DNA from: Ignavibacteriota bacterium
GTDB taxonomy: Bacteria; Bacteroidota; Ignavibacteria; UBA10030; CAVZMI01
Direction of reading: 5' to 3'
Assembly (NCBI GenBank): GCA_963835935.1
Contig: CAWIHK010000006.1
Location: 44,119-108,118 of the forward strand
DNA: 64,000 bases
In this document: in pieces, positions 10,487 through 47,044 of the stretch
Position numbering within the stretch: the first letter of the stretch is position 1
How the letters are laid out: each line of letters begins with the position of its first letter
Notes under the pieces: model-generated
Databases searched by the model: none
The model's input: the letters and a program-made list of their open reading frames with translations, nothing else
Told to the model about the DNA's origin: nothing
Translations under genes and position numbers: made by a program

Positions 10487-11830
10487 CTATTTTTGAATAA
10501 CCATTTTTTTTGTTTCAGTGAAATCTTTGGTTGTTAATCTTGCAAAGTAGATACCGCTATCAAGATGTTTTCCATCAAACTTTACTTCATGATCGCCGGC
10601 AGTTTGTTCTTTATCTATTAAAGTTGCAATTTCACGCCCGAGTGAATCGAATATTATTAATTCAACATGCGTCGAGTTTGGAAGTTGATAACGAATAATT
10701 GTATCCGGATTAAACGGGTTTGGATAATTTTGCAATAATGAAAAGTTCTTCAATTCATTTTTATATAGAATACCTGCGTCTTTATTTGTATCATAAGCTT
10801 CTACCGTGCTAAAGTAGGTTCCTGTCCAATCTAAAGTGCCCCCCATAATAAATATCTTGCCATTTATTTCAGCCGCTCCACAATCACTTTTTGCCTCCGA
10901 TAGGTTTGGTAAAAAAGTTTCAGTATTTGCCACAGGATCATATCTGATAGCTTTGTTCGACATACCAGATCCTGACAACCACAAACCACCGAACATATAT
11001 AACTTATTATTGACGACTAATTTTGTAAAGAAGCCAACAGGTGATGTATTAATTTTCTTTGTCCATTTATCGAGGTCCGGGTCATATTCGTTTATATAAG
11101 AATCTGCAATTGAATATATTTTACCATTTATAGTAACTGCCTGGCAAGGAGATTGACTGCTCACGGCGTAAGGCGCCTTTTCCGTCCATGTGTCAGTACT
11201 TATATCGTATTCTTCAATACCTCCAACGGCTGTATATGCCTGTGTCCAACCACAGATTGCGTAAATTTTATTATTCAAACAAACGACAGCAGGCCCTATT
11301 CTTTGTCTCTTCATCTTTGCCTTGATTTCCCAGCTATCATTTTGGGGATCGTACACCTGGACATTATCCAGAGCACTATTATTTGCAGTACCCCCGATGA
11401 TGTATATCTTCCCTTGATAGATTGCGACGCCTATATCATCACAACCCACCGGTAGATTTTTTTTATTAATCCATGTACCGTTTGCCGTATTAAACTCTTC
11501 AATCGTATTGCCTCCAATTTCAAATATTCTCCCGTTTAGTTCTACCAATGAGCCAATATTTATAGAATTTATATTGCCCTTTGTTGTCCAATTATCTGTG
11601 GCAGGATCATAAATATACATGATGCCAGAATTAGTAGCGTATATTTTACCATCGAGCGTGACAACATGAGGACACATAGCTTCCGGCAACGGTTGGCATT
11701 GTTGCCATTCATTTCCGTAGACAGGGCTAGAAAAGATCATTACAATTATTAATTCGGTGAAGATTACTTTTACATTGTTCATAGAAACCTTTCCAATTTT
11801 ATTATTTATTCTGTAATATTTTTTAAACAT
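10487..11830 (-). CDS. Kelch-repeat beta-propeller protein with T9SS C-terminal domain (start may be internal Met ~48 nt downstream)
   Basis: Repeated 'GKIYxIGG…YDPxTDxW' Kelch motifs; C-terminal 'LLQNYPNPFNPDTIIRYQL…' CTD. Confidence 0.7.
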   Translation of the reverse strand: MFKKYYRINNKIGKVSMNNVKVIFTELIIVMIFSSPVYGNEWQQCQPLPEAMCPHVVTLDGKIYATNSGIMYIYDPATDNWTTKGNINSINIGSLVELNGRIFEIGGNTIEEFNTANGTWINKKNLPVGCDDIGVAIYQGKIYIIGGTANNSALDNVQVYDPQNDSWEIKAKMKRQRIGPAVVCLNNKIYAICGWTQAYTAVGGIEEYDISTDTWTEKAPYAVSSQSPCQAVTINGKIYSIADSYINEYDPDLDKWTKKINTSPVGFFTKLVVNNKLYMFGGLWLSGSGMSNKAIRYDPVANTETFLPNLSEAKSDCGAAEINGKIFIMGGTLDWTGTYFSTVEAYDTNKDAGILYKNELKNFSLLQNYPNPFNPDTIIRYQLPNSTHVELIIFDSLGREIATLIDKEQTAGDHEVKFDGKHLDSGIYFARLTTKDFTETKKMVIQK

Positions 11831-13300: not shown

Positions 13301-13487
13301 GATACATTCCTTACATTGATTAGAATCTTTATACTCTTCGTATCCTTTGGGTTAATTACATGACCTTCATCACCATAGAAATCAGAAACTGAAAACATGG
13401 TAATGGATCACACCATATTCAGCATGTACTTGATTTTATGTAACTCACGTTACGTAAAGGAGAAATTCCTCCGGAAGTTCTGAAGGA

Positions 13488-13956
13488 ATGCCTTCGGCAG
13501 AGCCCCTTTGGGATAAATGACAATCCCACGAATCCCAAATCCCGCTGTATGGGATCCCGTCACATTAAAAAATATTATTGTGACGGGACAAATCCAATAT
13601 TAATTCAAAATCTATTAATTATACGGACAAAGACGTGCGTTTTCCAACATGACATTTGTCATTATGGACGGACATTTGTCATCAAGCATTTCTGACTGAT
13701 GTTACGCAAAGAGCCATTTCCTGTAATGGTCACTTCTGCCGAAGGCATGGCTTCGCCAGATACGATCCCGACTTCCGTCGGGATCACACCTCACCATGTT
13801 CGGTGCATCGCTCAGTGACCATGCTAATTTGCTGTGACACCGAGCATAGCCGAAGTGTCGGTTACCGAGTGATCCGCCAGTCTCTTTGGCGAATTCTATC
13901 GAGGTAACCCATAAACGCGAAAGTTCATGATTATTATCATTCTGCGTAACATCAGT
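13488..13956. repeat. Intergenic region with two nested 14-bp perfect inverted-repeat pairs and GC hairpins (MITE-like / structured element)
   Basis: atgccttcggcaga (13488) vs tctgccgaaggcat (13736); actgatgttacgca (13695) vs tgcgtaacatcagt (13942); hairpin gatcccgacttccgtcgggatc (~13773). Confidence 0.45.
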
Positions 13957-14038
13957 TACTAAATATTTTTATTCTAGTGGTGTGAAATCTGATAGGAAAA
14001 GATCAAGTTAGTGTAGATGAGAATTTTCTGATGTTTGA

Positions 14039-14685
14039 TCAGACCAAGTTATTCTTTACGGCATAAACCGCCAGTTGGGTGCGATCTTTTAATTGAAGCT
14101 TATTGAGGATGGTGGAGATATTATTTCGTATTGATCCCGGGCTTAAATCGAGTGTGGCTGCAATCTCTTTATTGCTTTGTCCGAACACAATCAATTGGAT
14201 AATTTTTTTTCTTTTTCCGTCAACTCCAAATTTTCTGCCGGTTGCATCGCAGGATGATTATCTTCCGACGAGACAATGGTATTCTTCAGGATTTGATAAC
14301 TCTCCGGATGAAAAACCTGCAAACCGCTTGCAACGCTTTTTATCGTCAAGATCAAATCTGATGGATTGATATCTTTCAACAAGTATCCATCTGCGCCTTT
14401 TTTCATCGCTTCAACGATCTTCTCCGGTTCATTGAATGTGGTGAGGATCAAAATTTTGATCTCTGGAAATTCTTCTTTTATTATTCGTGTTCCTTCAATG
14501 CCGTCCATAACAGGCATCACGATATTGAGCAAGAAAACGTCGGGGTGGAAAGACCGGCAGATTTCGTATGCCTCTTTTCCATTTGCGGCACACGCGATGA
14601 CGGAAATATCCGGGTCCTGTTCGATAAGGAACTTCAAACTTTCTCGAATGATAATCTGATCTTCAGCAATCGCAATTCGAATCAT
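14039..14685 (-). pseudogene. NarL/LuxR-family response regulator with -1 frameshift in an A8 (plus-strand T8, 14203..14210) homopolymer; receiver ORF 14191..14685 and out-of-frame LuxR HTH 14039..~14200
   Basis: Receiver 'MIRIAIAEDQ…LLNIVMPVMDG…'; downstream frame encodes '…IIQLIVFGQSNKEIAATLDLSPGSIRNNISTILNKLQLKDRTQLAVYAVKN' (LuxR HTH); adding one A to the run restores a single ~214-aa ORF. Confidence 0.7.
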
Positions 14686-16478
14686 TCTAGCACTGTATCC
14701 TCTCTTAATTCCTTATCAGCATTGGATTGTTCCTTTATCGGAATTTCAATATAAATGCTGAAACCGCTTTCTCCGTCAGAGCCGTATTTTAACCATCCGC
14801 CCAACTCGGAGACCCGATGCTCCATGTTTGTAAGTCCATTTCCACGCTGAATATTTTGACATCCCACACCATCATCTATCAGGAACAATTTCAGCGAAGG
14901 AGGGACATTGCGAAGAATGAGAGTGATATGTTGTGCATGGCCATGTTTGACCGCATTTGTTAATCCTTCCTGGATGATTCGGTATATATGGTGCATCCAC
15001 GGCGAAACATCTGTGTCGTTCAATCCTTCAAAAGTTAACGAGACTTCAATTCCGGAAATCTCAAAAGTCTTTTTCAAATTCAGAAGAGTTTCATAAAAAG
15101 AATTTTGAGATAGGTGTGAGGAAGATAAGCCGTTGATAGATCGGCGGAGTTCCTGAAGTCCGTCACGAGCAATCGCGATAGCTTCAATCAGTTTTTCTTT
15201 TGTGCGTTGCGCATCCTTCGAGCACGTAATTTCGCAAACCTGAAGCAGTGCGATGAGTATAGTCATTGTGTGTCCGATGGTGTCGTGTGCTTCCCGCGCA
15301 AATCGGTTTCTTTCTTCCATGATAGCGAGTTTCTGCATCAACTCCGATTGGCGCTGAAGCTGCGTGTTAGCCTCCGAGAGTTCTTGATTCGTACGGAAGA
15401 GAGTTTCGTTTGCTCGCTGAAGATTCGATTGGACGAGACGGAACTCGGTAATTTCCTGAAGCGTGATGATTCTTCCCAACACTTTCGATCGCTTGTGATA
15501 ATAAGGTTGGATCCCGATATGTAAAATGATAGTTTCGGTCGAATGCAGTATAATTTCTCCTGTGAAATTTAAAAATGAAGGATCACCGAGCGCCTGTATG
15601 GTTTCATTGTCCACTGCATCCGCGGATAACGCTTTTCCGAAAGCACCGATGAATGAGGAGATATCATCATCGGATTCGATGACCCGAAAGCGAGAAAAAA
15701 GTTTTTTAACCGATGCATTGGCATTCATGATTTTATTTCGTCGGTCAACGACAATAATACCTTGACTAACGGAATCGAATAATTCAGAAAACGCATACGG
15801 TGTGATATTCAAAAACCTGTAACGGAAAGTTACGAAAGCAAAAATAAAGATCGTCAGGCAGAAACATAACGGTGTTGTATCGATTCCATAGACATAATAA
15901 GATGCATGAAGAATATGAAGATGGTAATTTTGTTGTATGTTGGCCGCCAATGGCAGTAGAAGCGCGCTAATCAGGAGAATCGATTGTTGTTTCATCGTGC
16001 CGATATTCTTGAATGCATAGATAATTAAGAGAATCATCCCTACGAAGAGATATCCATAAGAAAATAAAATATGTAGTAGGAAAAGGATAAAGGGTTTGTT
16101 TGGGAAATGAAATAATAAAAAGAATATGATGGAGGGTATCCAGAGAATTTTCATCCATCGCTTATTATGACAAATGGGCGCATTAGTATAGAAGAGTGAA
16201 AATGTGAGCCATGACGGACCGCTAAATGCAGTTACTGTCGCTTCAAGCGTCAGGAAGACAGGAAAAGCGAATGGTTCGAGCTGGTCCTGCTGGCCTCCCA
16301 GCAAGACCATGCCACGAATAAGGTCATGGAAAATCCATAGAAAAATTACAACCTGAAAACCAAGAAAGGAGAATAACAAGGAATTGTGTTTTCCATTCAA
16401 ATAAAAATAGAAAATGGAAAAGCTGACCAGCAGGAGTGCCGCAATATAAATGAGAATTTGGAACGATGCCGGAAGCAT
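14682..16478 (-). CDS. Sensor histidine kinase (multi-TM N-terminus, PAS, HisKA_3/NarX-type, HATPase_c)
   Basis: ~7 hydrophobic segments; 'EERNRFAREAHDTIGHTMT' H-box; C-terminal ATPase motifs; 4-nt overlap with the RR gene. Confidence 0.8.
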   Translation of the reverse strand: MLPASFQILIYIAALLLVSFSIFYFYLNGKHNSLLFSFLGFQVVIFLWIFHDLIRGMVLLGGQQDQLEPFAFPVFLTLEATVTAFSGPSWLTFSLFYTNAPICHNKRWMKILWIPSIIFFLLFHFPNKPFILFLLHILFSYGYLFVGMILLIIYAFKNIGTMKQQSILLISALLLPLAANIQQNYHLHILHASYYVYGIDTTPLCFCLTIFIFAFVTFRYRFLNITPYAFSELFDSVSQGIIVVDRRNKIMNANASVKKLFSRFRVIESDDDISSFIGAFGKALSADAVDNETIQALGDPSFLNFTGEIILHSTETIILHIGIQPYYHKRSKVLGRIITLQEITEFRLVQSNLQRANETLFRTNQELSEANTQLQRQSELMQKLAIMEERNRFAREAHDTIGHTMTILIALLQVCEITCSKDAQRTKEKLIEAIAIARDGLQELRRSINGLSSSHLSQNSFYETLLNLKKTFEISGIEVSLTFEGLNDTDVSPWMHHIYRIIQEGLTNAVKHGHAQHITLILRNVPPSLKLFLIDDGVGCQNIQRGNGLTNMEHRVSELGGWLKYGSDGESGFSIYIEIPIKEQSNADKELREDTVLE

Positions 16479-16588
16479 TATCTGTAATACTTATCCTGAA
16501 AAATAAAATATATGAAAGATGTAGAATTCTAATAATAATTGCAACTAATCCATTTCTTGTTTCATGATTGATAAAGAGATGATTGTGT

Positions 16589-18070
16589 CTAGCGTCTGAA
16601 CTTCGTCATTGCCGCCGCTATTGAATCCTGCAAACTCCGGAAAGGATGAGCTGTACTCACATAGTTTTCCATCATAATCGAAAACGCGAGAAGTTCACCG
16701 TTAACGGTTTCTGCGTAACCGGAGAGAGCGCTGGCTCCGGTGATTGTTCCGGTTTTTGCAAAAATTTTTCTTTCGGCGGCTGACTTTTTCATACGCGATT
16801 GCAACGTTCCGGATAAACCGCCGATTGGCAAACTTTTCTTGAATAATGGAAAAAGTTCTTTTTCTTTTGCCATGCCGTAAAGAATAGTTACAAGTGCATC
16901 CGGACTTATTAAATTATATGACGATATTCCTGAGCCATCGACAATCATGTATTGTGATGTATCGATGCTCATCGAAGCGAGAATATTTTTTTCAATTTTC
17001 AATCCGTTGAATGTAGAACCCGGGCATGTATCGTGTTCTGCCGCGGCAGTTTTTAGAATATTTTCCGCCGAAAGATTATCACTCATCTGATTCATATTAA
17101 TAAGTACAGTATCAATTCCCCATGAGTGATCAGCAAGAATATGGCATCCCGGATTGATAACACCCAGTTTCGACATACTGTCGATGATAATTCCTTTTTG
17201 CTCAAATAGTTGGCGTGCGATATCCAGAGTAAAAAGTTCTGGTTTCCAAATATTCAAATCATAATGTTGGATAGCCGATTGCAACGGAAGCGAACCTTGA
17301 ATCTTTATGATATTTTCTTCAGGCCGGATCGATCGAGTTACGTCCAGCGTTTGCGCGGAACTATCCGGGCCTGTAATCCCTTCATTCTGAATTGTAACAT
17401 ACGATGTCCATGGTGAGACGGCGACTCGAAGAGGTTTCTTTTCTTCCTCGCCAGGCTTTACAAAAATTTTAACACAATTATTATTAATGCTTAGCGGTGT
17501 GATGTGCATAGCGAAATCGAATGGGTCGTCGTCCCACATCCAGCCTGTTCCCCAATCTTTTGAATCGAAATAACTAACATCACCGACGAGTGAACCTTTT
17601 ACATGCTTCAATCCCTGTCGTGCAAGCGAGTTAATCAGTGTGTCGAGCTGTTCGATTGTAAAATCCGGATTGCCGGATCCTTTAAGATATAGCGAGCCTT
17701 CAAGAGTTCCATTTTTATTAATAGATGTGTCGGCATAAAATCGTGTGTGGAAAGAAAAGTGTGGGCCAAGTGTTTTTAAGGCGGCGACAGTCGTCAGCAA
17801 TTTTGTGTTCGACGCGGGATGAAATAACTTTTTGCTGTCATGTTCGTAAAGGACATCATTGTTGGTGACTGAGACGATTTTAATTCCTACCTGTGCCTGA
17901 GAAAAAATTGAATCTTGAAGGATTCGATTTATTCTTGATTGAAATTCCGAAGGTGATTTTTGTTTTTCAGGATGCGTAAGCGATGCAACGTGTGTTGTGC
18001 GGCATCCGCTGACGATTAGTGTTAAGCAAAGTAGAAAGAGAAAAGAATAAACATGTTGAACCGTTTTCAA
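16589..18070 (-). CDS. dacB: D-alanyl-D-alanine carboxypeptidase/endopeptidase, PBP4 family (S13)
   Basis: Signal/lipobox; 'PASNTKLLTTVAAL' SxxK motif; 'SGSG', 'KTGT' motifs. Confidence 0.75.
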   Translation of the reverse strand: MKTVQHVYSFLFLLCLTLIVSGCRTTHVASLTHPEKQKSPSEFQSRINRILQDSIFSQAQVGIKIVSVTNNDVLYEHDSKKLFHPASNTKLLTTVAALKTLGPHFSFHTRFYADTSINKNGTLEGSLYLKGSGNPDFTIEQLDTLINSLARQGLKHVKGSLVGDVSYFDSKDWGTGWMWDDDPFDFAMHITPLSINNNCVKIFVKPGEEEKKPLRVAVSPWTSYVTIQNEGITGPDSSAQTLDVTRSIRPEENIIKIQGSLPLQSAIQHYDLNIWKPELFTLDIARQLFEQKGIIIDSMSKLGVINPGCHILADHSWGIDTVLINMNQMSDNLSAENILKTAAAEHDTCPGSTFNGLKIEKNILASMSIDTSQYMIVDGSGISSYNLISPDALVTILYGMAKEKELFPLFKKSLPIGGLSGTLQSRMKKSAAERKIFAKTGTITGASALSGYAETVNGELLAFSIMMENYVSTAHPFRSLQDSIAAAMTKFRR

Positions 18071-30754: not shown

Positions 30755-31500
30755 GTCTATTTCGATTGTATGGATCAACCATCTTGATTTTTTTGTTAAG
30801 CCAAATACTTAGCAATGGAATTTTTGCTCAAACAGCCGCAAATATTCAACGTGCTGTAGACATCGTAGTAGCGACTGGCAGTTCTCCGAATGATCCTTCT
30901 GTTTATCAATGGCAAGCAATATCAAATACTACGCAAGGTGTCCACGTTAGTGTCGTGCCAACAGAAATTACGGCAATTTACTTACAACAAAATAATTCTC
31001 TTATCAATTTTCATACATGGAATTTTGGATATATGTTTGCTCTTTGGGTGAGTTATGATGGTGGAAATTTACAGGAAATCTTTAATAACACTACGAAGGA
31101 TGTATCTGGCTGGTTGGTGCCACCATTCTCCACTCTGGGACATCATACTATTTTGGTTAAATGGATTGATATAGCTCTAAATGTCTATTTTAGGAACTAT
31201 GATGTATATGTTGTACCCGCCTGCACAAAATTTTATATGGATAATTATGGGAATACTCTTACCTCTTGGGAAGGTAGTAGTACAGGAACACCTATAATAA
31301 TATCGGAAGGATTTGATGCCTATAATAACACTTATTCAGAGTATTTAAGATACAAAGGACAACAATTGTTTGACACGCTCACTTTGGCAGGTTGCAGGAT
31401 ATATTTTCTTAACTATTATCTCAATAGCCAGGATATGAGAAACTCTGCGGCGATCTATAATTCGGCAGCAAGATATTATTTCATCGATCAGTTCAAATAG
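30751..31500 (+). CDS. Hypothetical secreted protein, probable N-terminal part of a lipase-like gene (4-nt overlap with upstream OMP gene)
   Basis: Signal peptide; ends 4 nt before a +1-frame fragment with GxSxG motif. Confidence 0.4.
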   Translation: MSLFRLYGSTILIFLLSQILSNGIFAQTAANIQRAVDIVVATGSSPNDPSVYQWQAISNTTQGVHVSVVPTEITAIYLQQNNSLINFHTWNFGYMFALWVSYDGGNLQEIFNNTTKDVSGWLVPPFSTLGHHTILVKWIDIALNVYFRNYDVYVVPACTKFYMDNYGNTLTSWEGSSTGTPIIISEGFDAYNNTYSEYLRYKGQQLFDTLTLAGCRIYFLNYYLNSQDMRNSAAIYNSAARYYFIDQFK

Positions 31501-31504
31501 TCAA

Positions 31505-31744
31505 ATGGTAGCGGCTGGTGTGAGCATGGGCGGGGTAATTGTTAGATATGCTTTGGCAAAAGCAGAAAATGACGGCGCGCCATTACCGTTCAAGAAATTT
31601 GTTTCTATTGATGGTCCACAACAAGGAGCCGTCGTTTCATATGATCTGCAATCTTTTATTAAGAATCAAACATCATGTGGGGCACAGGTAGCAGATGATT
31701 TTACCCACTGCTCCACTGCTCCACTGCTAATAAATAGATATTAA
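31505..31744 (+). pseudogene. α/β-hydrolase (lipase-like) fragment with GVSMGG nucleophile elbow, out of frame with 30751..31500 and 3'-truncated by the CACTGCTC repeat
   Basis: 'VAAGVSMGGVIVRYALA…FVSIDGPQQGA'; 31590..31696 identical to 25985..26091. Confidence 0.5.
31706..31729. repeat. (CACTGCTC)x3 octanucleotide tandem repeat (second copy)
   Basis: cactgctccactgctccactgcta. Confidence 0.85.
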
Positions 31745-31746
31745 AA

Positions 31747-33210
31747 GAGAATGTCCCACTCTTAGTTGAAATTCAGCGATAGAAATTTGAGGTTGTTGTC
31801 AACATAAATATTTTTTATGCGACAAGCAAATTTTGTTTTTTATTTTTATTCAACGCGTCAATTAATATTGGTAATGCACCGTAACCTTTTATTCTTCTAA
31901 ATCCTTTTTCAGCTTCCAACACTCCAGCACAAACCCAGCGTGTAACTTGTTCTTCAGTCTTCCAATATTTTACATTCCTCTCTTTCTGTCGAACAACTGA
32001 ATTGAGCGACTCGATCAGATTTGTCGATTGCAATGATTTGCGCAGAGCAAGAGGAAGATTAAGTCGATGCAGCGTCAACGTTTCATCCAATCCTTCACGT
32101 AAACTTTTTGCAGCCGACGAATGCTCTTGCTCCAAGTCCTGCGCAATTGATAGCAGCCGTTCTTTTGCTTTCACTGCATCGTTCATCGAATATGCTTCCG
32201 TCATTCTTCTGCTGACAACTCCCTGAAGATTTTTTGGAAGATAACTTAACACATTACGTTTCTTGTGAACTGTGCAGCGTTGGACATGTGTGTCTGTTCC
32301 AAGTATATCAATGACAGCTCGCCGCAAGGCTTTCGATCCGTCCATCACTACCAAATATAATTGCTCTGTGTGTAATCCACGATCTATCAAATTTTCCAAC
32401 AAACCTTTCGCTATCGTCGTATTTTCTGCCGATCCCTCCCATACCCCAAGAACATGCTTAATCCCTTTAGTATCAATTCCTAACGCGATCACTACTGTAT
32501 AATCACCAATGTGTATTCCATCGATCATCAACACTGCCAACTCTAATTCTTCCAGCCGTCGTTCAAACATTTCTTTTATCTTTTGAGCCGTTGCTGCAAT
32601 CATTCTTCTGCTTACACTGCTCGAACTCGTTCCATACCCTTCTAGAAATTTACTCACTCCTTCTTCATACCTTCGTGTGCTAATGCCTCGAATCAAATCT
32701 CGATATGTCCTCTGAATTAATTCTGCAGACTTACTAAATAATCCGTACGTCTTCAAACTCCACGCATGCTTGTTCTCAACATCCACAACTCGGGTGACAA
32801 ATATTTTTTTCCTCTTTCCATTTACGATCACCGATCCTGGATTTGTTCCATGTCGTGTGCACTGCCGATCAGGTAAATGTTTATATCGTTCGCCTGCAAG
32901 TGATTTGACTTCTTCTTCCATGATCGTCTCCATCACTTGTAAGGAGATGCCTTCCATTTCTTCCGAGAGCGATTCTTTTAATCCCAACAAAACTTCTTTC
33001 ACTGTGTCAACGATCTTTTCTTCCAACTTCTCAAAATGTTTTCCGCTCGTACTGTTGATTACTTCATTCGCTTTTGCTACTTTGATCTTGTGCATGGCGA
33101 TAGTCCTTTCTTTGGTGTTTAATAATTTGAATCGTTATTTTCTCACCTCAGATTAACTATCGCCTGTATTTTTTTCAAGCGCTATTTTCAACTAACTTCG
33201 GGACATCACC
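31747..33210 (-). mobile_element. IS256-family insertion sequence with imperfect terminal IRs and 8-bp target-site duplication TATTAAAA (31739..31746 and 33211..33218)
   Basis: Left end GAGAATGTCCCACTCTTAGTTGAAATTCAGCG vs rc of right end GGTGATGTCCCGAAGTTAGTTGAAAATAGCG; identical flanking octamers. Confidence 0.8.
31815..33095 (-). CDS. IS256-family (Mutator-type) transposase
   Basis: 426 aa; '…LQSTNLIESLNSVVR…' and DDE-region features typical of IS256 transposases. Confidence 0.85.
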   Translation of the reverse strand: MHKIKVAKANEVINSTSGKHFEKLEEKIVDTVKEVLLGLKESLSEEMEGISLQVMETIMEEEVKSLAGERYKHLPDRQCTRHGTNPGSVIVNGKRKKIFVTRVVDVENKHAWSLKTYGLFSKSAELIQRTYRDLIRGISTRRYEEGVSKFLEGYGTSSSSVSRRMIAATAQKIKEMFERRLEELELAVLMIDGIHIGDYTVVIALGIDTKGIKHVLGVWEGSAENTTIAKGLLENLIDRGLHTEQLYLVVMDGSKALRRAVIDILGTDTHVQRCTVHKKRNVLSYLPKNLQGVVSRRMTEAYSMNDAVKAKERLLSIAQDLEQEHSSAAKSLREGLDETLTLHRLNLPLALRKSLQSTNLIESLNSVVRQKERNVKYWKTEEQVTRWVCAGVLEAEKGFRRIKGYGALPILIDALNKNKKQNLLVA

Positions 33211-33218
33211 TATTAAAA

Positions 33219-33497
33219 ACGATTACGAAATAAAATATTTTTTACACATGGAGGTGCGGAATAAAGAAAACTTATATAGCCAATTTTTTATTTGGTTCAA
33301 GGAGATTCTTTTTTTTCGTAAGATAAAAGCCCTATTACAATCTCTACACGCTTGCCCCAGGTATGTAAGTATTTACGAAGAGCCGTGTGAGGGAAACCGT
33401 TAGGCGTGAGCCTCAGTCGAACGCTCACGACGAAATCTCACGCATGGTTCTGTGAAGGGCAATGAAAGTATCGTTAACTATTTTTTAGGAGCAAAAA
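33219..33497 (+). promoter_or_regulatory. Conserved 5' leader element (copy 2) with small ORF (MEVRNKENLYSQFFIWFKEILFF…, 33258..33377) and extended hairpin
   Basis: Homologous to 24920..25226 (see above). Confidence 0.5.
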
Positions 33498-33956
33498 ATG
33501 TCTACTAGACGAAAAGGTTTAAAAAAGATTAAAAGAATATTCCTATCGTTGCTTGTAGCATCGATAGGAATTCTTTGGTTCTCCGACTGTAAGTCGCCAA
33601 CATCTTCTAATCAATCTCCAAATCATAGTATAAGTATCTATGCAGAGTGGATGTTTAGAAGTATTTCAGGTGGAATTGAAGGTAAGACGTATATAGTCGA
33701 TACGAATTTGAACAAAACTGTCCTCACTTTCAACTCTAACCACATAGCAACTATAGTCCATAATGACACTCTGCTATGGTCTGGCGTATTTTTAATTGAG
33801 AAACGGAAGTCAATATATTCTGCGGACAGTTTAGATTTCATCATATACCAGAATGGATCTCATCCTGATGTCATCATCTATATATCCTATGATTCTCTTG
33901 TTCTTGGCGATAACTGGTTTGATGGCTGTACTAGTACATATACCAAGTTAAATTGA
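33498..33956 (+). CDS. Small hypothetical lipoprotein
   Basis: Signal peptide with Cys (LWFSDCKS); no family recognised. Confidence 0.4.
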   Translation: MSTRRKGLKKIKRIFLSLLVASIGILWFSDCKSPTSSNQSPNHSISIYAEWMFRSISGGIEGKTYIVDTNLNKTVLTFNSNHIATIVHNDTLLWSGVFLIEKRKSIYSADSLDFIIYQNGSHPDVIIYISYDSLVLGDNWFDGCTSTYTKLN

Positions 33957-33982
33957 AATGGTGCTAATAGAAGGCTAAAAAA

Positions 33983-35044
33983 ATGAAAAAAACATGCCAC
34001 ATATTCTTCGCAATTACAATTCTATTTTTGTTCTTACAAATAAACTGCAAGCATAATCCTGTAGGTACGCAGGATAACATCCAGCCGGGGCGACGAGATT
34101 ATACATGGACAGTTGATACACTAAATGCTGGACCCGGTAATATATTTTATCTCTTCAGCTTGTGGGGAAGCAGTCCGCAGGACGTTTGGGCTGTAGGTTC
34201 AGGCGGTTCTCCAGATTTGTGTTTGTGGCATTTCGACGGAGTAAGTTGGAAACGAGATATGTCGCGTACGTCGAGTGATCTCATGTCCGTCTACGGCTTT
34301 TCGAAAAACAATGTCTGGACGTGCGACGGCGGAATATTTCATTATGATGGTTCCCAATGGTCTTTGAACTATCATTATAATGTTTCAGGCGAGCGTCTTC
34401 TTATTAATAATATTTGGGGCGATGCACCTGATAATATTTTTGGGGTTGGCGGAATAGATCTACTTGATGGTAGTGGAAATTACAAAGGTGCAATTTGGAG
34501 ATATACTGGCGTCATTTGGTTTCCTGTACAGATTCCTGAATTACGTGTTGGTTTTTCATGGATAAGACATGACCAAGTAGATGGAAAATATTATCTGACT
34601 GCAACACGTTTCGAGGCCATTGGAGACACAAATAAAATTTTTCAATTCGATGGCAATAATCTTAAACAAATTTATAGCGGCCAGGATGTAGCCACAGTTA
34701 ATGAAGTAGATGGCAAAATCTATCTTTGCATCGGGAGAAAGATATTCAGATATCAAAGTGATCAGCTACAATTATGGAAAGATTTCACCGGTACTATATA
34801 CTTAGGTCTGATGTGGGGGCGCAGCGAAAAGGATTTCTTTAGCGTTGCAAATGGCGGCCTTGTTCATTATAACGGCACTGACCTCGCTTTGCTTTATCCA
34901 ACAACTATGCTTATTTCGGATGTAGCGGTTTTTCCAAACGATGTTTTTATACTTGCGTGGAATACGAACAATGATATTACCATTGTTGTTCACGGTGTTC
35001 TTAACAATACGGAGAAGAAAAATACCACTCAATACAGTAATTAA
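33983..35044 (+). CDS. Beta-propeller-repeat lipoprotein (paralog of the IS110-disrupted gene)
   Basis: Lipobox LQINCKH; repeated 'W..G….DVW/IW..GG' blades. Confidence 0.5.
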   Translation: MKKTCHIFFAITILFLFLQINCKHNPVGTQDNIQPGRRDYTWTVDTLNAGPGNIFYLFSLWGSSPQDVWAVGSGGSPDLCLWHFDGVSWKRDMSRTSSDLMSVYGFSKNNVWTCDGGIFHYDGSQWSLNYHYNVSGERLLINNIWGDAPDNIFGVGGIDLLDGSGNYKGAIWRYTGVIWFPVQIPELRVGFSWIRHDQVDGKYYLTATRFEAIGDTNKIFQFDGNNLKQIYSGQDVATVNEVDGKIYLCIGRKIFRYQSDQLQLWKDFTGTIYLGLMWGRSEKDFFSVANGGLVHYNGTDLALLYPTTMLISDVAVFPNDVFILAWNTNNDITIVVHGVLNNTEKKNTTQYSN

Positions 35045-35173
35045 ACAAAGGCGATGGTGCTGCGAACACCACCGCCATTTTTGAATAGCCGTAAAGGCTG
35101 GTCACCTTTTTTCGATTTGCATCGAGGGCTATTTCATTTATAAGATACTTATTTTTAGGAAAGGAAAAAAGTC

Positions 35174-38100
35174 ATGAAAAGAGCTATTCGCGTTGTTTTC
35201 ACAATCAGTATACTCATGCTGTTTTTTTTCATCAGGGGCAGTGTCGGCCAGACAATTCGATCTGACAGCCTTTTACAAATGTCAAAAACCCTTTATCAAT
35301 CGATAGAACGATTGGAAACAAATCATAGTACCGGTGTTCCTCGATCGATACGCGGTAAGTTGACTTCAAATGTAAATTTAAATGATATTTCACAGGCGAA
35401 ACAGTTCCTCCATAATTCGAGGTCACTGTTTCGCATGAACGAAGTCACAGACGATTTCGTTATGGAAAAAGTTGATAAAGACGAAATCAGTATGACTCAT
35501 GCAAAATTGCAACAGAATTATAAAGGCGTCCCGGTTTGGGGATCGGAGTTGATTCTCCACAGCGATCAGAACAATACTGTTGTTGAAATAAACGGCAGAT
35601 TCACTCCTGATTTGAATATTGATATGACCATAGGAATTCAATCTTCAAATGCTTTAAACATTGCACTTGCCGATCTTGGTCCGGCAGATTATCGCTGGGA
35701 AAATAAAGATCAAGAAAATATTATCAAGCAAGTTTTCAATGACAATAGCAGAACATGGAAACCTAATCCAGTGTTGGTTGTTGCGCCGCGCAATAGCAAC
35801 TTCGACAAAAGTGAATATAGGCTTGCGTGGAAAATGACTATTGCTGTTGATGGCGCGAAAATGGGTAATTGGGAATATTTCATCGATGCAAAGACTGGTG
35901 AAATTATAAATAAATACAATTCAATGGCGGATGCAATCGGCAGCGGTGTCAGCAATTATAATGGTATAGTCCCTATTTATTCTGAATGGAATTCTACAAC
36001 ATATCAAATGATTGATAGCATTCGGAATATTATCACTACTGTTTATTATAATCCTAATAATCAATTTGGAGATCCTACACTCCAATATCAACTCTTAACT
36101 GATGATGATAATTATTGGGACCAAAATAAATCGGCAGTTGATGTGCATTGGGGAATTGCACAAGTGTATGATTTCTATAAGAATGTCTTCAACCGAAACG
36201 GTTTTGATAATTCCGGCTCCATAATTCTGAACGAGGTGAATTTTCCAATCTCCCCTAATAATTGTAATGCAGCCTGGAATGGAACACAAATGGTATACGG
36301 ATCAGGCGATGGACAAAACTTCTCGTCTGTTACTTCTCTTGATATTTGTGGCCATGAACTAACGCATGCCGTTACTCAATATACTGCAGGCTTAGGACAT
36401 CAAGGTGAATCCGGCACTTTGAATGAAGCGTTTTCGGATATTTTTGGAATGGCAATTGAATTCTACGCAACTCCATCGAAAGCGGACTGGAAAATTGGGG
36501 AAGATTGTTATACACCGGGAATCAGCGGCGATGCTCTGAGATATATGAACAATCCAAAAGCTGGAAATCAGCCGGATACTTACCAAGGAATGAATTGGGA
36601 TACGACAGCAAATCCGGATGTGCACACAAACGATGGTGTATTGAATTATGCTTTCTATCTGATGACGGTCGGAGGAAGTGGTACTAATGATAACGGTACT
36701 TCGTACTCTGTCGCAGGTGTCGGACTTGTTGAGACGAGAGCGATTGCATACAGAGTATTGACAGTTTATTTGCACTCCAGCGCTCAATATGCAGATGCAC
36801 GAACTGCATTTCTATCGGCGGCATCCGACTTGTACGGTGCAGGTGGAGCGGAATATCTGGCAGTATTAAATGCGTTTGCAGCGGTTGGAGTTGAAGCGAA
36901 GCTGACTATTGCAAATAGCTTCAACACCGGCGTAATAATGGTGAATGGTGGAACGGTGGCCAGCGGCTACATTTATCCCGCCGATATTACTTCCGTGCAG
37001 ACTTATCAGGCGATTCCTCAACATTCTGGCTCATATGATTATGTCTGGAATATGAATGGCGCTGATTCGAGTATTAGTTATTGGAATCTAAAGCCTTCTG
37101 GAGGTCGACAAAGTAGAATTTCAGGTGCAACAAATATTTCTTACACATACTCCGTTGCCAAATCTGACAACAACGCAACGTACATAGCAGATTTAAAGAA
37201 GAACTTTGCAATAAGCAGAAACGATCAAACTGAATTTGACGGAACTATATCTGACGGTATAGTTGCACATATTGTAGAACAGAATTCCGGTTCTATATCA
37301 GCTCCAGCGCAACAAAAAATTAACAATCACAATTACATATTTTATAATTGGTCTGACAGCTCCACGGCTAATCCGCATACAATAACTCCAACCGATAATA
37401 CCACGCTTACCGCCAACTACAAAGGTCACATGCTCTCTAACACCTCTGCCGCCACCGCCGGCAACAGCAGCCGTAAAATTGCGTATGATGATATCGACGG
37501 TTCGGACCATGTTACTCATGCTGTTTATTCTTCCTGCGGAAGTATCTGGTACGTGCGGAATGTTAATGGGACCGGCTGGAGCAACGAAATAAAACTTGGT
37601 GATGGAATCAATCCATCAATTGCAGTAACCGCTCCGCAAGATGGGCATATTTATACACATGTTGTGTGGGAGCAGAATGGCAGAGTATATTATCGAAGAT
37701 CGGGAAATGATGGAGTTACATGGGATGCAGCATTGAGTTTCCCTGGTTTGGAAGCAAGCGGATACAATGCAACGCCGGTTGTCATAGGCAATTATGAAGC
37801 TATGGTTATCTGGTGTTACGGCAGTCAGGCTAATGGCGGAGGCTTGTACGCGTGTGTCGAACCGGCAAGTTTAAATATCCAGGGAGCTATTGCCGGTACA
37901 AATTGGAAAACACATTCACCTTCCGGTGTAGAGCAGAATTGGCATTTGAGTGCAGTTCCCAATTTTTCTTCTAATCATTTTTTCCATATCGCTTATGCAA
38001 CCGACACTGCAATCGTATATGATAATCTTCAGGTATATACGTCGCCTCCTTCAATCTTTTCAACATGTAAAATTTCCGTCTCACCATCGCCAAACACCGG

Positions 38101-39977
38101 GAATACAAATCCATCTATCGCATGCGCATACGATCTGGTAGATACGAGTTTGAGAAAGGTTGGCGTTGCATGGGAGAACTCAACAAATCACAGGGTGTAT
38201 TATCGAGAATCGGCAAATGATGGAAGCACTTGGGGAACTGTAAAAGAGTTTACACACGGCACTGACCAACTTTCGCAGCCTGTTGTCAGTTTCGGAACTA
38301 TGAGTAATTCAGCGACTGTTCTATTTCAAGATAACAATCAGATAGGAAGGGTGGTAAAAGATCTTGGCCGCGGAACATGGTCGCCAATAATGAATTTAGG
38401 CACAGGAACAGGAGAACATTTGCCATCATGCACTGATGTATCGCCAGCGGCGTTGTGGGTGACCGGAAGTTCATCGCCATTCACCATTAATACTTCTGTT
38501 CTTACTGTTCTTCCAACTCCTACACAATTATCGCCAACAAGTGGAGCAACTAATATATCAACAACACCAATAATTAAATGGAACACAGTGGCGGGAGCAG
38601 CATCGTATTGGCTGCAGGTGGCAACTGATACAGGATTTAATTCGTTAGTTGTGAATCAAGCAGGGATTACTGGAACATCTGATACAATAACAACAGCACT
38701 TTCAAACAACACTACCTACTACTGGCATGTGAATGCAGCGGATCCAAGCGGAGATCAAAGCAGTTGGTCTTACACATGGTCATTCAAAACTACACCTCCA
38801 CCACCACCGCCTCCGCCGCCACCACCAACACTTTCATCACCTACAAACGGCATGGCAAATGTACCATTAACACAATCATTAAGCTGGAGCAACGTCGTAC
38901 CGGCTACAAGTATCTAAAAATAGCGACTTATCCTCACCTGTTTATGACAATTCATCGCTCACAGGATTATCGATTCCGATAAGCGGTCTTGGTCTTACCA
39001 ACGGTACGAACTATTATTGGCGAGTAAATGCAACGAATGCAGGAGGAACGAGTGCGTGGTCGGCGGTATGGCAGTTCCAGACGGTGATAACACCGCCGAC
39101 ATTAACTTCACCTTTACCTATAAGCGGAGCCGTTAATGTACCGATACCAACGACATTGATTTGGGGAGTAGTTACGGGAGGTCAATCGTATCAAGTGCAG
39201 GTATCGACCGATCCGGGATTTTCATCCGCATCATCTATAGGAAGTAATACAACCTCGTGTACAATAACGCTTTCAAACAACACAACCTACTACTGGCATG
39301 TGCGTGCATCGAATCAAGGCGGAGGTCAGAGCGGCTGGTCGTCTACAGGAATATTCACAACAGTACCCGCACCGCCAGCAGCTCCAACACTTTTATTACC
39401 TGCAAATAATGCTACAGGTGTATCGAGAACGCCAACACTAACTTGGAGTGCAGCTGCAAGAGCAACATCATATACAGTGTGTATTGCATATACAAATACC
39501 AATGTTGGGAATGTAACGTCATGGAAAGAGACTAATACACTTCAAGCCAATACAAAATATTCCTGGTCAGTATATGCAAGTAATGCTGGAGGAAATTCCC
39601 CAATGTCGACATTATATTATTTTACAACAGGCACACAAATATCTAAGAGAGTCATAAGTTTAGACCAGAATGATGGTTCGGAGTCTGATTATGTGCCAGA
39701 TATTTATAATCTGTATCAGAATTATCCTAATCCTTTCAATCCTTCAACAACGATACAATTCGATCTGCAAAATACAACGAAGGTGATATTGAAAATATAT
39801 GATATATCAGGGAAGGAAATTCAAACATTAGTTAATTGTTATCTTGCAGCGGGATCGTACACAATTCGATGGAACGGACAGGATGCGAATGGTAGAAACG
39901 TGCATAGCGGAATGTATTTCTATCGTCTATCAACAGAAATGTTTACAGGCACAAAAAAGATGATGCTGTTGCGTTAA
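35174..39977 (+). pseudogene. Large secreted M4 (thermolysin-like) metalloprotease with BNR/Asp-box repeats, four FN3-like repeats, poly-Pro linker and T9SS C-terminal domain; reading frame broken near 38898..38917 (ORFs 35174..38917 and 38883/39084..39977)
   Basis: HExxH 'CGHELTHAV' + 'LNEAFSDIFG'; 'YYRRSGNDGVTW','YYRESANDGSTWG' Asp-boxes; FN3-like repeats continue across the frame break; C-terminal 'LYQNYPNPFNPSTTIQF…' CTD. Confidence 0.65.
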
Positions 39978-40002
39978 GGAGATTACATTCAATAACAATG
40001 TG

Positions 40003-40047
40003 AAAAAAGGCCGCTTCATTATTTAATGGAGCGGCTTGTATTTTTTG
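40003..40047 (+). terminator. Rho-independent terminator after the M4 protease gene
   Basis: ggccgcttcatta…taatggagcggc stem followed by tattttttg. Confidence 0.5.
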
Positions 40048-40050
40048 TGT

Positions 40051-40073
40051 AGGTCGATTTTAAAAATCGACCT
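40051..40073. repeat. Perfect 11-bp-arm palindrome AGGTCGATTTT-A-AAAATCGACCT, followed by two more TCGA-containing dyads (40089..40106, ~40130..40160)
   Basis: Read directly upstream of era. Confidence 0.55.
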
Positions 40074-40230
40074 TTAACGGCTTCAGAAGTCGAAACGCGG
40101 TTCGACAAGCTCACCGCAAGAAATTTCGACCAACATTGCAGTTCGATTTTTAATTGATAGCTGATAGCACTAAACTGCGCTTCATCTAATCACATTACGC
40201 AATCACCTTCTCCTTTTTAATCCAATTTTT

Positions 40231-41178: not shown

Positions 41179-42048
41179 ATGGCAGACGTTTTTCCTTTTC
41201 AAGCGCTTTACTATAATCCGGCAAAACTAAAATTACAGCAGGCTTTTTCACAACTCGATTCCGGCGCCGAAACTCCTCCGGCTTATCACATCTCGCGTTT
41301 GCTTACACCGGATGACGATGCGGTGCGGACTAATCTCATTCAACAGTGGACGAAAGAGGGAATTATAACAACCGATGAATCAAAAGATTTTTATATTCTG
41401 CGCCAGAGTTTTTCCGGAGAAGGCGGTATAAAATTCAGTCGCACGGGGTTTATAGGGCTTTGGAATCTTCCTGAAGCTATCCTAAATCAGTATTGTGAAG
41501 ATTCATACGATGGGCCGGTTGAGTCGGATGTCCTATCATTTCGGCCATTGCTGGGATTTTATGACGATACACTTAACAGAATCGATCGGTATATATCATT
41601 TGCGATCAAATCGATTCCGCTGCTCGATTGTGTGAGTGGCGATGTGCGTTCCACAATATGGAAAATCAATGACGGCGGTTCGATTGCAGGAATTTCGCGT
41701 GAGATGAAAACGAAAAATATTCTTCTTGCGTCTGCAAAACAGGATATGCAGCGTTATTGTGTTTTTTATCGGAAGCAAAATATTCCTCCGGCGAATGCGT
41801 TATTCATGACTCTGTTATTTAACGTGAGAGAGGAAGGGATCGTTAATTCAGCGTGGAATCGCTTGATGGGGACTCAAAACAAATTGAGAATTAATGAATT
41901 AAAAAATGAAATTGGTTATGAGGGTAATACACTCGATCACGTGATGATTTCTGTGCTCGACAAATCGGACACGGTGGTCGGGGAAGAATTCGATCTCTAT
42001 CCGCCATTACCGGTTGGTTTGATCTTTCATTATATCTCGAAACTCTGA
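41179..42048 (+). CDS. DUF1015-like hypothetical protein
   Basis: N-terminus 'MADVFPFQALYYNPAK' resembles DUF1015 family start; shorter than typical. Confidence 0.35.
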   Translation: MADVFPFQALYYNPAKLKLQQAFSQLDSGAETPPAYHISRLLTPDDDAVRTNLIQQWTKEGIITTDESKDFYILRQSFSGEGGIKFSRTGFIGLWNLPEAILNQYCEDSYDGPVESDVLSFRPLLGFYDDTLNRIDRYISFAIKSIPLLDCVSGDVRSTIWKINDGGSIAGISREMKTKNILLASAKQDMQRYCVFYRKQNIPPANALFMTLLFNVREEGIVNSAWNRLMGTQNKLRINELKNEIGYEGNTLDHVMISVLDKSDTVVGEEFDLYPPLPVGLIFHYISKL

Positions 42049-46213: not shown

Positions 46214-47044
46214 GTGATCATGGACCAAGATATCAAAGTTGTGATAGCTGCACCAACATTTCAATCGTCATTTCATACATCTCTTTGTGAGCATCACAAG
46301 AAGTGGTTTAAACCGCACGAGATGACGTTACGGTCTGTGACAGACGACCCGAAAGAACAAAAAAATAGTTTACTCAGAGCGCTCGCACAAACAAAACCTA
46401 CTGCTTTAATTGCTATTTCGATACGGCCGGATATCGATGTTGTTGAGGCATACTCTGCTGCGAACGTACCGATCGTATTGATTGACGAAGAGATGCTCAA
46501 CGTGTCGACAATTACCACGGACAATTTCATGGGTGGATGCCTTGCGGGAGATCACCTGATTTCGAAAGGCAAAAAAAAGATCGCCATTGTGGCCGGCAGA
46601 ACTGGTGTGCAGGGTGGATACAACGCGGATCAGAGAATCAAAGGATTCAAGCATGCAGTGGGTTCTGCAAAGATGACCGTATCTCCATCATCCATTTTCG
46701 AAGTGATACGTTATTCTCGTGAGGAAGGAATGGAAATCTTTCCGAAATTAATGGATATTGGCGTCGATGCCGTTTTTTGTGCTGCGGGAGATCATTGTGC
46801 CTTTGGACTGATTAGTGCAGCAAAAGCCATGAATAAAAAAGTTCCTGACGACATTGCCATCGTAGGCTTTGATGATTTGCGCATCGCGCAGCTTTCTAGT
46901 CCTATGCTTACAACTATCAAGCAACCTTTGGAGAAAATAGTCGAAGCTGCGTATGACATGGTTGTAAATCAAAGAGACGAAATTCTTCGTAAGCCGCAAA
47001 AGATCGTATTAAAACCGGAACTTATAGTTCGTCAATCATCATAA
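46214..47044 (+). CDS. LacI-type periplasmic-binding-fold ligand-binding domain protein lacking the N-terminal HTH
   Basis: '…VGFDDLRIAQLSSPMLTTIKQPLEKIVEAAYDMVVNQ' matches LacI C-terminal domain; upstream AT-rich DNA encodes no HTH. Confidence 0.5.
   Translation: MIMDQDIKVVIAAPTFQSSFHTSLCEHHKKWFKPHEMTLRSVTDDPKEQKNSLLRALAQTKPTALIAISIRPDIDVVEAYSAANVPIVLIDEEMLNVSTITTDNFMGGCLAGDHLISKGKKKIAIVAGRTGVQGGYNADQRIKGFKHAVGSAKMTVSPSSIFEVIRYSREEGMEIFPKLMDIGVDAVFCAAGDHCAFGLISAAKAMNKKVPDDIAIVGFDDLRIAQLSSPMLTTIKQPLEKIVEAAYDMVVNQRDEILRKPQKIVLKPELIVRQSS

Follow-up and report, generated by a model that had tools for sequence, protein, structure and literature searches.

The stretch analysed here (the window) comprises 64,000 nucleotides of a contig assigned to an Ignavibacteriota bacterium (CAWIHK010000006.1, positions 44,119 to 108,118, assembly GCA_963835935.1). 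It carries on its minus strand a two-component cassette in which a sensor histidine kinase gene is followed by a response regulator gene of the NarL/FixJ family. As written, the regulator gene is broken at a run of eight A residues (A8), and the codon for the phospho-acceptor aspartate of its receiver domain specifies asparagine. The features on which the argument rests are as follows.

14682..16478, minus strand: sensor histidine kinase gene, 598 aa, apparently intact (Pfam and homologue alignment)
14039..14685, minus strand: whole NarL/FixJ-family regulator gene, a pseudogene as written, 215 aa if the run is A9 (Pfam, NarL match, homologues)
14191..14685, minus strand: frame-0 open reading frame (ORF) with receiver and linker, 164 aa, then TGA at 14191..14193 (sequence, ORF list)
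14203..14210, minus strand: A8 homopolymer (T8 on the plus strand), putative site of a one-base deletion (sequence)
14039..14203, minus strand: -1 frame segment holding the remaining 54 residues of the GerE/LuxR helix-turn-helix (HTH), stop-free and with conserved residues retained
14524..14526, minus strand: codon 54, AAT (Asn), at the phospho-acceptor Asp position (119-homologue alignment)

The kinase had been described, in an original prediction made from the sequence alone, as having about seven transmembrane helices, a PAS domain and a HisKA_3 domain. Pfam matches bear out the helices and the HisKA_3 domain, with HisKA_7TM at residues 12-227 (E 3e-15) and HisKA_3 (PF07730) at residues 389-454 (E 1e-13), whereas the PAS domain is weakly supported: the PAS_8 match covers residues 230-262 only and scores 18.1 bits (E 0.0025), under the gathering score of 21.8 bits. 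HATPase_c at residues 497-582 lies just above its cut-off (26.9 against 26.4 bits). The phosphoacceptor, His398 (codon 15285..15287), falls within the REAHD motif of the HisKA_3 dimerisation domain, and the H, N, G1 and G2 boxes (QEGLTNAVKHG, DDGVG, GNGL..LGG) are in register with those of homologous kinases. Relatives of about 600 aa can be aligned over the full length of the protein at 33-38% identity. The kinase stop and the regulator start share four nucleotides (ATGA), an overlap that had been correctly read from the sequence.

The cassette is a conventional two-gene two-component pair, a 7TM/HisKA_3 sensor kinase with a translationally coupled, NarL-type DNA-binding regulator. It resembles systems of the NarX-NarL, UhpB-UhpA and LiaS-LiaR type both in the receiver and GerE HTH of the reconstructed regulator and in the cognate HisKA_3 kinase that lies immediately upstream and is translationally coupled to it. 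Among NarL/FixJ and HisKA_3 pairs, the same cassette, a kinase of about 600 aa with a regulator of 215 aa, recurs in many Clostridia-type contigs. Unlike the NarL/FixJ systems, the regulator of the window is frameshifted, lacks the phospho-acceptor Asp and belongs to no named orthologue group.

The frame-0 codons at the A run are GAA AAA AAA TTA TCC AAT TGA, so that a stop follows three codons past A8. The resulting 164-aa protein ends in ...LELTEKEKKLSN, of which the last three residues (LSN) are out of frame, and the source assembly has the identical 164-aa protein as its gene call (P0001), the contig there being 403,769 bp long. Read in the -1 frame from 14203, the last A of the run, the sequence gives IIQLIVFGQSNKEIAATLDLSPGSIRNNISTILNKLQLKDRTQLAVYAVKNNLV and reaches its stop at 14039. 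The undeleted form would have been GAA AAA AAA ATT (A9). One added A restores the frame to give a fused protein, and either the added A or a -1 shift yields ...TEKEKKIIQLIV..., in register with the homologues. That one extra A would fuse the frames into a NarL-family regulator had been proposed at the outset; the fusion holds, with a length of 215 rather than about 214 aa.

Domain matches place the junction inside the DNA-binding domain. The fused protein contains Response_reg (PF00072) at residues 4-115 (E 7e-26), found over the same residues in the 164-aa ORF as written (E 4.5e-26), and GerE (PF00196) at residues 155-209, covering profile positions 3-57 of 57 (E 5e-15). The GerE domain thus starts six residues upstream of the shift and spans it. 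Taken alone, the -1 segment still matches GerE (E 4.7e-12), over profile positions 10-57 only, the first helix being encoded upstream of the shift. As written, frame 0 stops at 14191 and the LuxR/GerE HTH is not on the same polypeptide as the receiver. Sequence, ORFs and junction-spanning GerE match together confirm that A8 at 14203..14210 splits a LuxR-type regulator whose receiver ORF is 14191..14685. The fused protein resembles NarL end to end and falls under every NCBIfam equivalog cut-off.

A search of 5.8 billion protein clusters returned 7606 homologues of the regulator, of which the best 120 were aligned. Among these the 164-aa ORF itself is the sole truncated member; the other 119 are 204-229 aa long and carry both domains, and the A9 reconstruction aligns with all 119 without a gap over residues 152-175. 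In homologous loci a HisKA_7TM/HisKA_3 kinase of about 600 aa always has a 215-aa regulator directly behind it; the flanking genes vary. At the shift site the closest orthologue (L002, 68% identity) reads AAG GAA AAG GAA ATC ATC and has no A run. The original prediction had named orthologous regulators as a check, and relatives with separate receiver-only and HTH-only genes as counter-evidence to a single split gene. No such separate arrangement was seen among the close homologues or homologous loci compared. Since each close homologue is one protein of about 215 aa, encoded beside a kinase of about 600 aa, the regulator is, on this comparison, a broken single gene and not a split design.

There is a second lesion in the same gene, which went unnoticed when the frameshift was first described. 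Residue 54, at the end of beta-3, is Asn in the window regulator and Asp in 119 of 119 homologues. Twelve columns are strictly invariant among those homologues, and Asn54 is the only one at which the window protein differs. The change is a single transition (AAT for GAT). The other active-site residues are retained, namely Asp9 (preceded by Glu8), Thr82 and Lys104, in columns at least 98% conserved among the 119. Moreover, the Asn54 codon is reproduced exactly in a contig assembled independently from run ERR10755942 (L001), which is identical to the window over 14369..19478. Asn54 is not an assembly quirk, because this contig is 100% identical across codon 54. Replacement of Asp by Asn at the phospho-acceptor site of a receiver abolishes normal phosphotransfer.

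The reading that we favour, with a probability of about 0.6, is a genuine and recent inactivation of the NarL-type regulator (A9 to A8, together with Asp54 to Asn), possibly polymorphic and leakily rescued. One lesion, Asp54 to Asn, leaves the receiver unable to accept phosphate normally from the kinase. The other, loss of one A from an A9 tract at the first HTH helix, would bring in a stop three codons on, the product being a receiver of 164 aa that lacks the DNA-binding domain; the base was probably lost through slipped-strand mispairing in the A9 tract. With the kinase gene and the 54 codons after the shift still free of damage, the deletion appears to be recent in evolutionary terms, and the site may vary within the population. 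Some full-length regulator, in small amount, might still be made, by +1 A transcriptional slippage on A8 or by -1 ribosomal slippage on A_AAA_AAA. Such a leaky rescue is plausible, and it would be incidental, not an evolved mechanism. Two rare disabling changes in one gene are the expectation under relaxed selection. The three readings put forward originally (assembly error, pseudogene, phase switch) are not fully separated by these data, but Asn54 moves the weight towards a genuine pseudogene.

Several points weigh on the other side. Asn54 might alternatively be the sign of a working pseudo-receiver; key catalytic residues are missing from several percent of receiver domains (PMC12632262), and pseudo-receiver or aspartate-less receiver (ALR) domains share with the window protein a receiver fold without a phosphorylatable Asp (PMC4395418, PMC12632262). 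That said, in the pseudo-receiver families known the altered site is conserved and the proteins are mostly orphans, whereas Asn54 is unique among the 120 aligned proteins, is shared by no clade of relatives and stands behind an intact cognate kinase. The kinase being intact is itself a point against inactivation. Nor is there any excess of decay beyond the two lesions: of the 58 columns with at least 90% conservation, the regulator departs from consensus at 3, as many as in its nearest relative, which is intact (P0002). For this reason a general decay of the regulator was rejected. The independent contig that reproduces codon 54 ends 158 nt short of the A run, and neither of the two independent contigs spans it. 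Finally, an A9 tract would be the longest coding homopolymer in the window and the site most prone to undercalling, and the other coding 8-mers, though correct, do not fully vouch for it.

These last points belong to the first of the alternatives, an assembly or base-calling artefact, under which the true run is A9 and the gene encodes a full-length, 215-aa NarL-family protein, intact but atypical in its Asn54. Single-base changes in homopolymer length are a classic error mode of several sequencing platforms, and the lesion is just such a change, in a homopolymer of at least 8, with the downstream frame perfectly kept. The contig is evidently metagenome-derived and has no close relatives, every window protein tested being a singleton at 90% identity, and no independent sequence among the collections searched covers the A run. 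No further copy of the regulator junction was found in the 5.8 billion protein clusters or in the scanned genome and metagenome contig collections. A protein search with the C-terminal 114 residues of the regulator recovered the source gene call only, contig scans with the fused protein gave distant relatives only (at most 39% identity), and no record matched the 164-aa ORF or the downstream Kelch gene exactly.

Set against this is the behaviour of homopolymers elsewhere in the 64 kb. One base was inserted or deleted in turn at every homopolymer (A/T of at least 6, G/C of at least 5) and the result tested for ORF fusion. Besides the regulator, the sole sense-strand match was at 10504..10511, which was rejected as a second break in that the upstream gene already has a complete C-terminal sorting domain of the type IX secretion system (T9SS); the other flagged sites were rejected as antisense to real genes or intergenic. 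Ten other coding A8/T8 runs and about 30 coding 7-mers keep frame, no other genuine homopolymer-linked gene break was found in the 64 kb, and Pfam scans of the remaining large ORFs of the window showed no other split domains. The two independent ERR10755942 contigs match 6.8 kb of the window at 100% without an indel. The assembly looks generally accurate, given that homopolymer runs keep frame and that these 6.8 kb are identical. An artefact would require, in addition, a second and unrelated rarity, the loss of an invariant Asp from a regulator still coupled to its kinase. We consider an artefact unlikely, while giving it serious weight.

At the tips of the two independent contigs there are small differences from the window, at the last base of L001 (window 14368) and the first two bases of L023. 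These are probably low-coverage contig ends, and they may alternatively represent a minor strain variant (a synonymous ATC/ATT difference at regulator codon 106).

The next alternative is an evolved switch, either a phase-variable contingency tract (A8 OFF, A9 ON) or a programmed recoding site at which transcriptional slippage or -1 frameshifting (the latter known from dnaX and from insertion sequence (IS) elements) yields a set ratio of receiver-only to full-length protein. The A8 run at 14203..14210 is a coding homopolymer whose length switches the frame, as is characteristic of phase-variable simple sequence repeats. It contains a slippery heptamer, A_AAA_AAA (14203..14209), in the exact X_XXY_YYZ frame-0 register, and a -1 shift there gives the canonical protein. 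Two candidate stimulatory elements flank the run.

14146..14196, minus strand: weak predicted hairpin, -10.3 kcal/mol, z = -1.16, with 28 of 200 shuffles at least as good
14224..14227, minus strand: GGAG, a possible weak stimulator resembling a Shine-Dalgarno (SD) sequence, which may be chance, 14 nt 5' of the heptamer

The hairpin begins 6 nt 3' of the A run, and the GGAG lies in a genome that uses SD pairing, with SD-like motifs before 26 of 45 ORFs against a 9% background. Neither element withstands scrutiny: the best hairpin is no better than the 200 shuffles, longer windows give z > 0, and GGAG is a chance-level tetramer. The shift site and the two-frame organisation are conserved in none of the 119 homologues, all of which are unshifted, and the closest orthologue lacks the run altogether. 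A phase switch is also less attractive because its ON form would still be without the phosphorylation site. Nothing found supports an evolved signal at the A run, and we regard a switch of either kind as improbable.

Precedents for both kinds of switch do exist. Bordetella bvgS undergoes a poly-C frameshift in a two-component protein. In Campylobacter jejuni flgR/flgS, phase variation at A/T tracts affects a response regulator and its kinase, and the likeness to the window lies in a one-base change of a coding homopolymer that truncates a two-component protein (PMC3930126). For flgR/flgS and bvgS, however, ON/OFF variants and their reversion have been demonstrated experimentally in host-adapted pathogens, whereas the window regulator is seen in one state and would carry Asn54 when ON. 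As for recoding, the Shigella activator mxiE (T9) is made by slippage (cited in PMC1088944), and along with Thermus dnaX (A9), A8/A9 IS elements and endosymbiont poly(A) pseudogenes it has in common with the window an A/T run at which a +1 insertion in the mRNA gives the long product (PMC1088944, PMC5574713). The sites in those systems are conserved among homologues or established by RNA or protein data, while the run considered here is lineage-specific and only 8 long. An A8 tract is at the lower edge of efficient slippage, for which the usual threshold is 9 (PMC1088944). Published work does make plausible the incidental, leaky rescue that forms part of the favoured reading. Insertions during transcription cluster in A/T runs and become exponentially more frequent as the run lengthens (PMC5574713). 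An apoB deletion allele with an A8 run makes about a tenth full-length product, and A8 is productive in some bacterial IS elements (PMC1088944). A_AAA_AAA is a proven -1 motif in IS elements given a stem-loop, and A7 motifs are depleted in Escherichia coli genes in all frames (PMC4066793).

In its strongest form, the tract would be a working contingency or recoding site, a change in its length or slippage of mRNA or ribosome setting the ratio of two products. One, a receiver-only protein that cannot be phosphorylated, could titrate the kinase by binding it; the other would be a full-length LuxR-type regulator acting independently of phosphorylation (Asn54). If this is true, a signalling module of a free-living Ignavibacteria-like bacterium would be switched stochastically; we give the idea slightly less credence still.

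Finally, the possibility of a split by design, with the receiver encoded by one gene and a 51-aa HTH protein by another, is rejected as exceedingly improbable: both ORFs are open and a TTG is present at 14194, but GerE begins at residue 155, upstream of the shift, so that the small ORF lacks the first helix (profile 10-57), the TTG, its sole possible start, is preceded by no SD-like motif, and no homologue compared is so arranged.

The best matches of the window SecA, at no more than 76% identity, are in metagenome-assembled genomes of Ignavibacteria/Kryptonia-type Bacteroidota. In the nearest relative (L021) a block of two S13 peptidases, a hypothetical gene, SecA and P-II is syntenic with the window. 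The two-component cassette is not at the syntenic locus of that relative and in the window lies exactly at the break in synteny, surrounded by T9SS cargo genes. Its best named homologues are from Clostridia (50-58% identity), whereas the housekeeping genes are Ignavibacteria-like. GC content and GC content at third codon positions (GC3) of the cassette equal the window mean, and a recent horizontal transfer was rejected on these grounds. Any transfer would have to be old (ameliorated), because the composition equals that of the window. A Clostridia/Bacillota-like cassette in an Ignavibacteria-like genome suggests just such an old transfer between phyla, as judged by homology and composition. 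The cassette looks accessory from its placement and relatives, and cassettes of that kind, in genomes undergoing rearrangement, are typical candidates for decay.

Downstream of the regulator pseudogene, a 739-nt gap (13301..14038) extends to the first Kelch/T9SS gene. It contains no ORF of at least 100 aa; the short ORFs present (at most 83 aa) were judged spurious. No credible Rfam match to a structured RNA was found within it, and scans for terminators and promoters around the cassette locus returned chance-level counts. The gap might represent an extended regulatory region or what is left of a lost gene. On both sides of the locus there are tandem paralogues. Between 5007 and 13300 these are two proteins with esterase, F5/8-type-C and T9SS-tail parts and two Kelch-repeat proteins with T9SS tails, and at 16589..19623 two Peptidase_S13 (PBP4-like) genes.

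Further into the window, P-II and era, which adjoin each other in the nearest relative, are separated by about 15.6 kb (~24600..40230). This island includes several ORFs without a Pfam match, a 1247-aa M4 (thermolysin-like) peptidase and two IS elements.

27982..29388: IS110-family transposase (DEDD_Tnp_IS110 and Transposase_20; Pfam)
31815..33095: Mutator/IS256-family transposase (Pfam)

The two transposases and the inserted island indicate that real gene-disrupting events occur in the window. Just upstream of the IS110-family transposase, the ORF 26947..27759 encodes a lipoprotein-like paralogue of 26133..26918 with no Pfam match. A G11 run (27730..27740), in a window of 41.5% GC, lies 19 nt before its stop. 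This ORF may be truncated by the IS, or the G11 run may be part of the IS end or target. The DUF1015 gene (41179..42048) encodes 289 aa with 31% identity to a 405-aa orthologue in the nearest relative, against 53-76% for its neighbours; either its C-terminus seems to have been cut short or its sequence has diverged strongly, and it may be a further case of gene decay. At 46214..47044 there is a LacI-family ligand-binding domain protein without the LacI HTH and with its own SD, apparently a stand-alone gene. It was rejected as a second frameshifted regulator, there being no HTH remnant in any upstream frame and an SD and start of its own.

Neither the gene family nor the cassette nor the mutational mechanism is new, and the biological significance of the finding is small, homopolymer frameshifts in accessory regulatory genes being common. 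For annotation, the public 164-aa 'response regulator' call deserves a frameshifted-pseudogene label or a check of the reads, and the kinase upstream is best treated as probably orphaned. Inspection of catalytic residues, here Asp54 to Asn, can help to tell real decay from assembly error without recourse to reads. If the tract is polymorphic, it would represent phase variation of a regulator outside the host-adapted pathogens, which would be of moderate interest.

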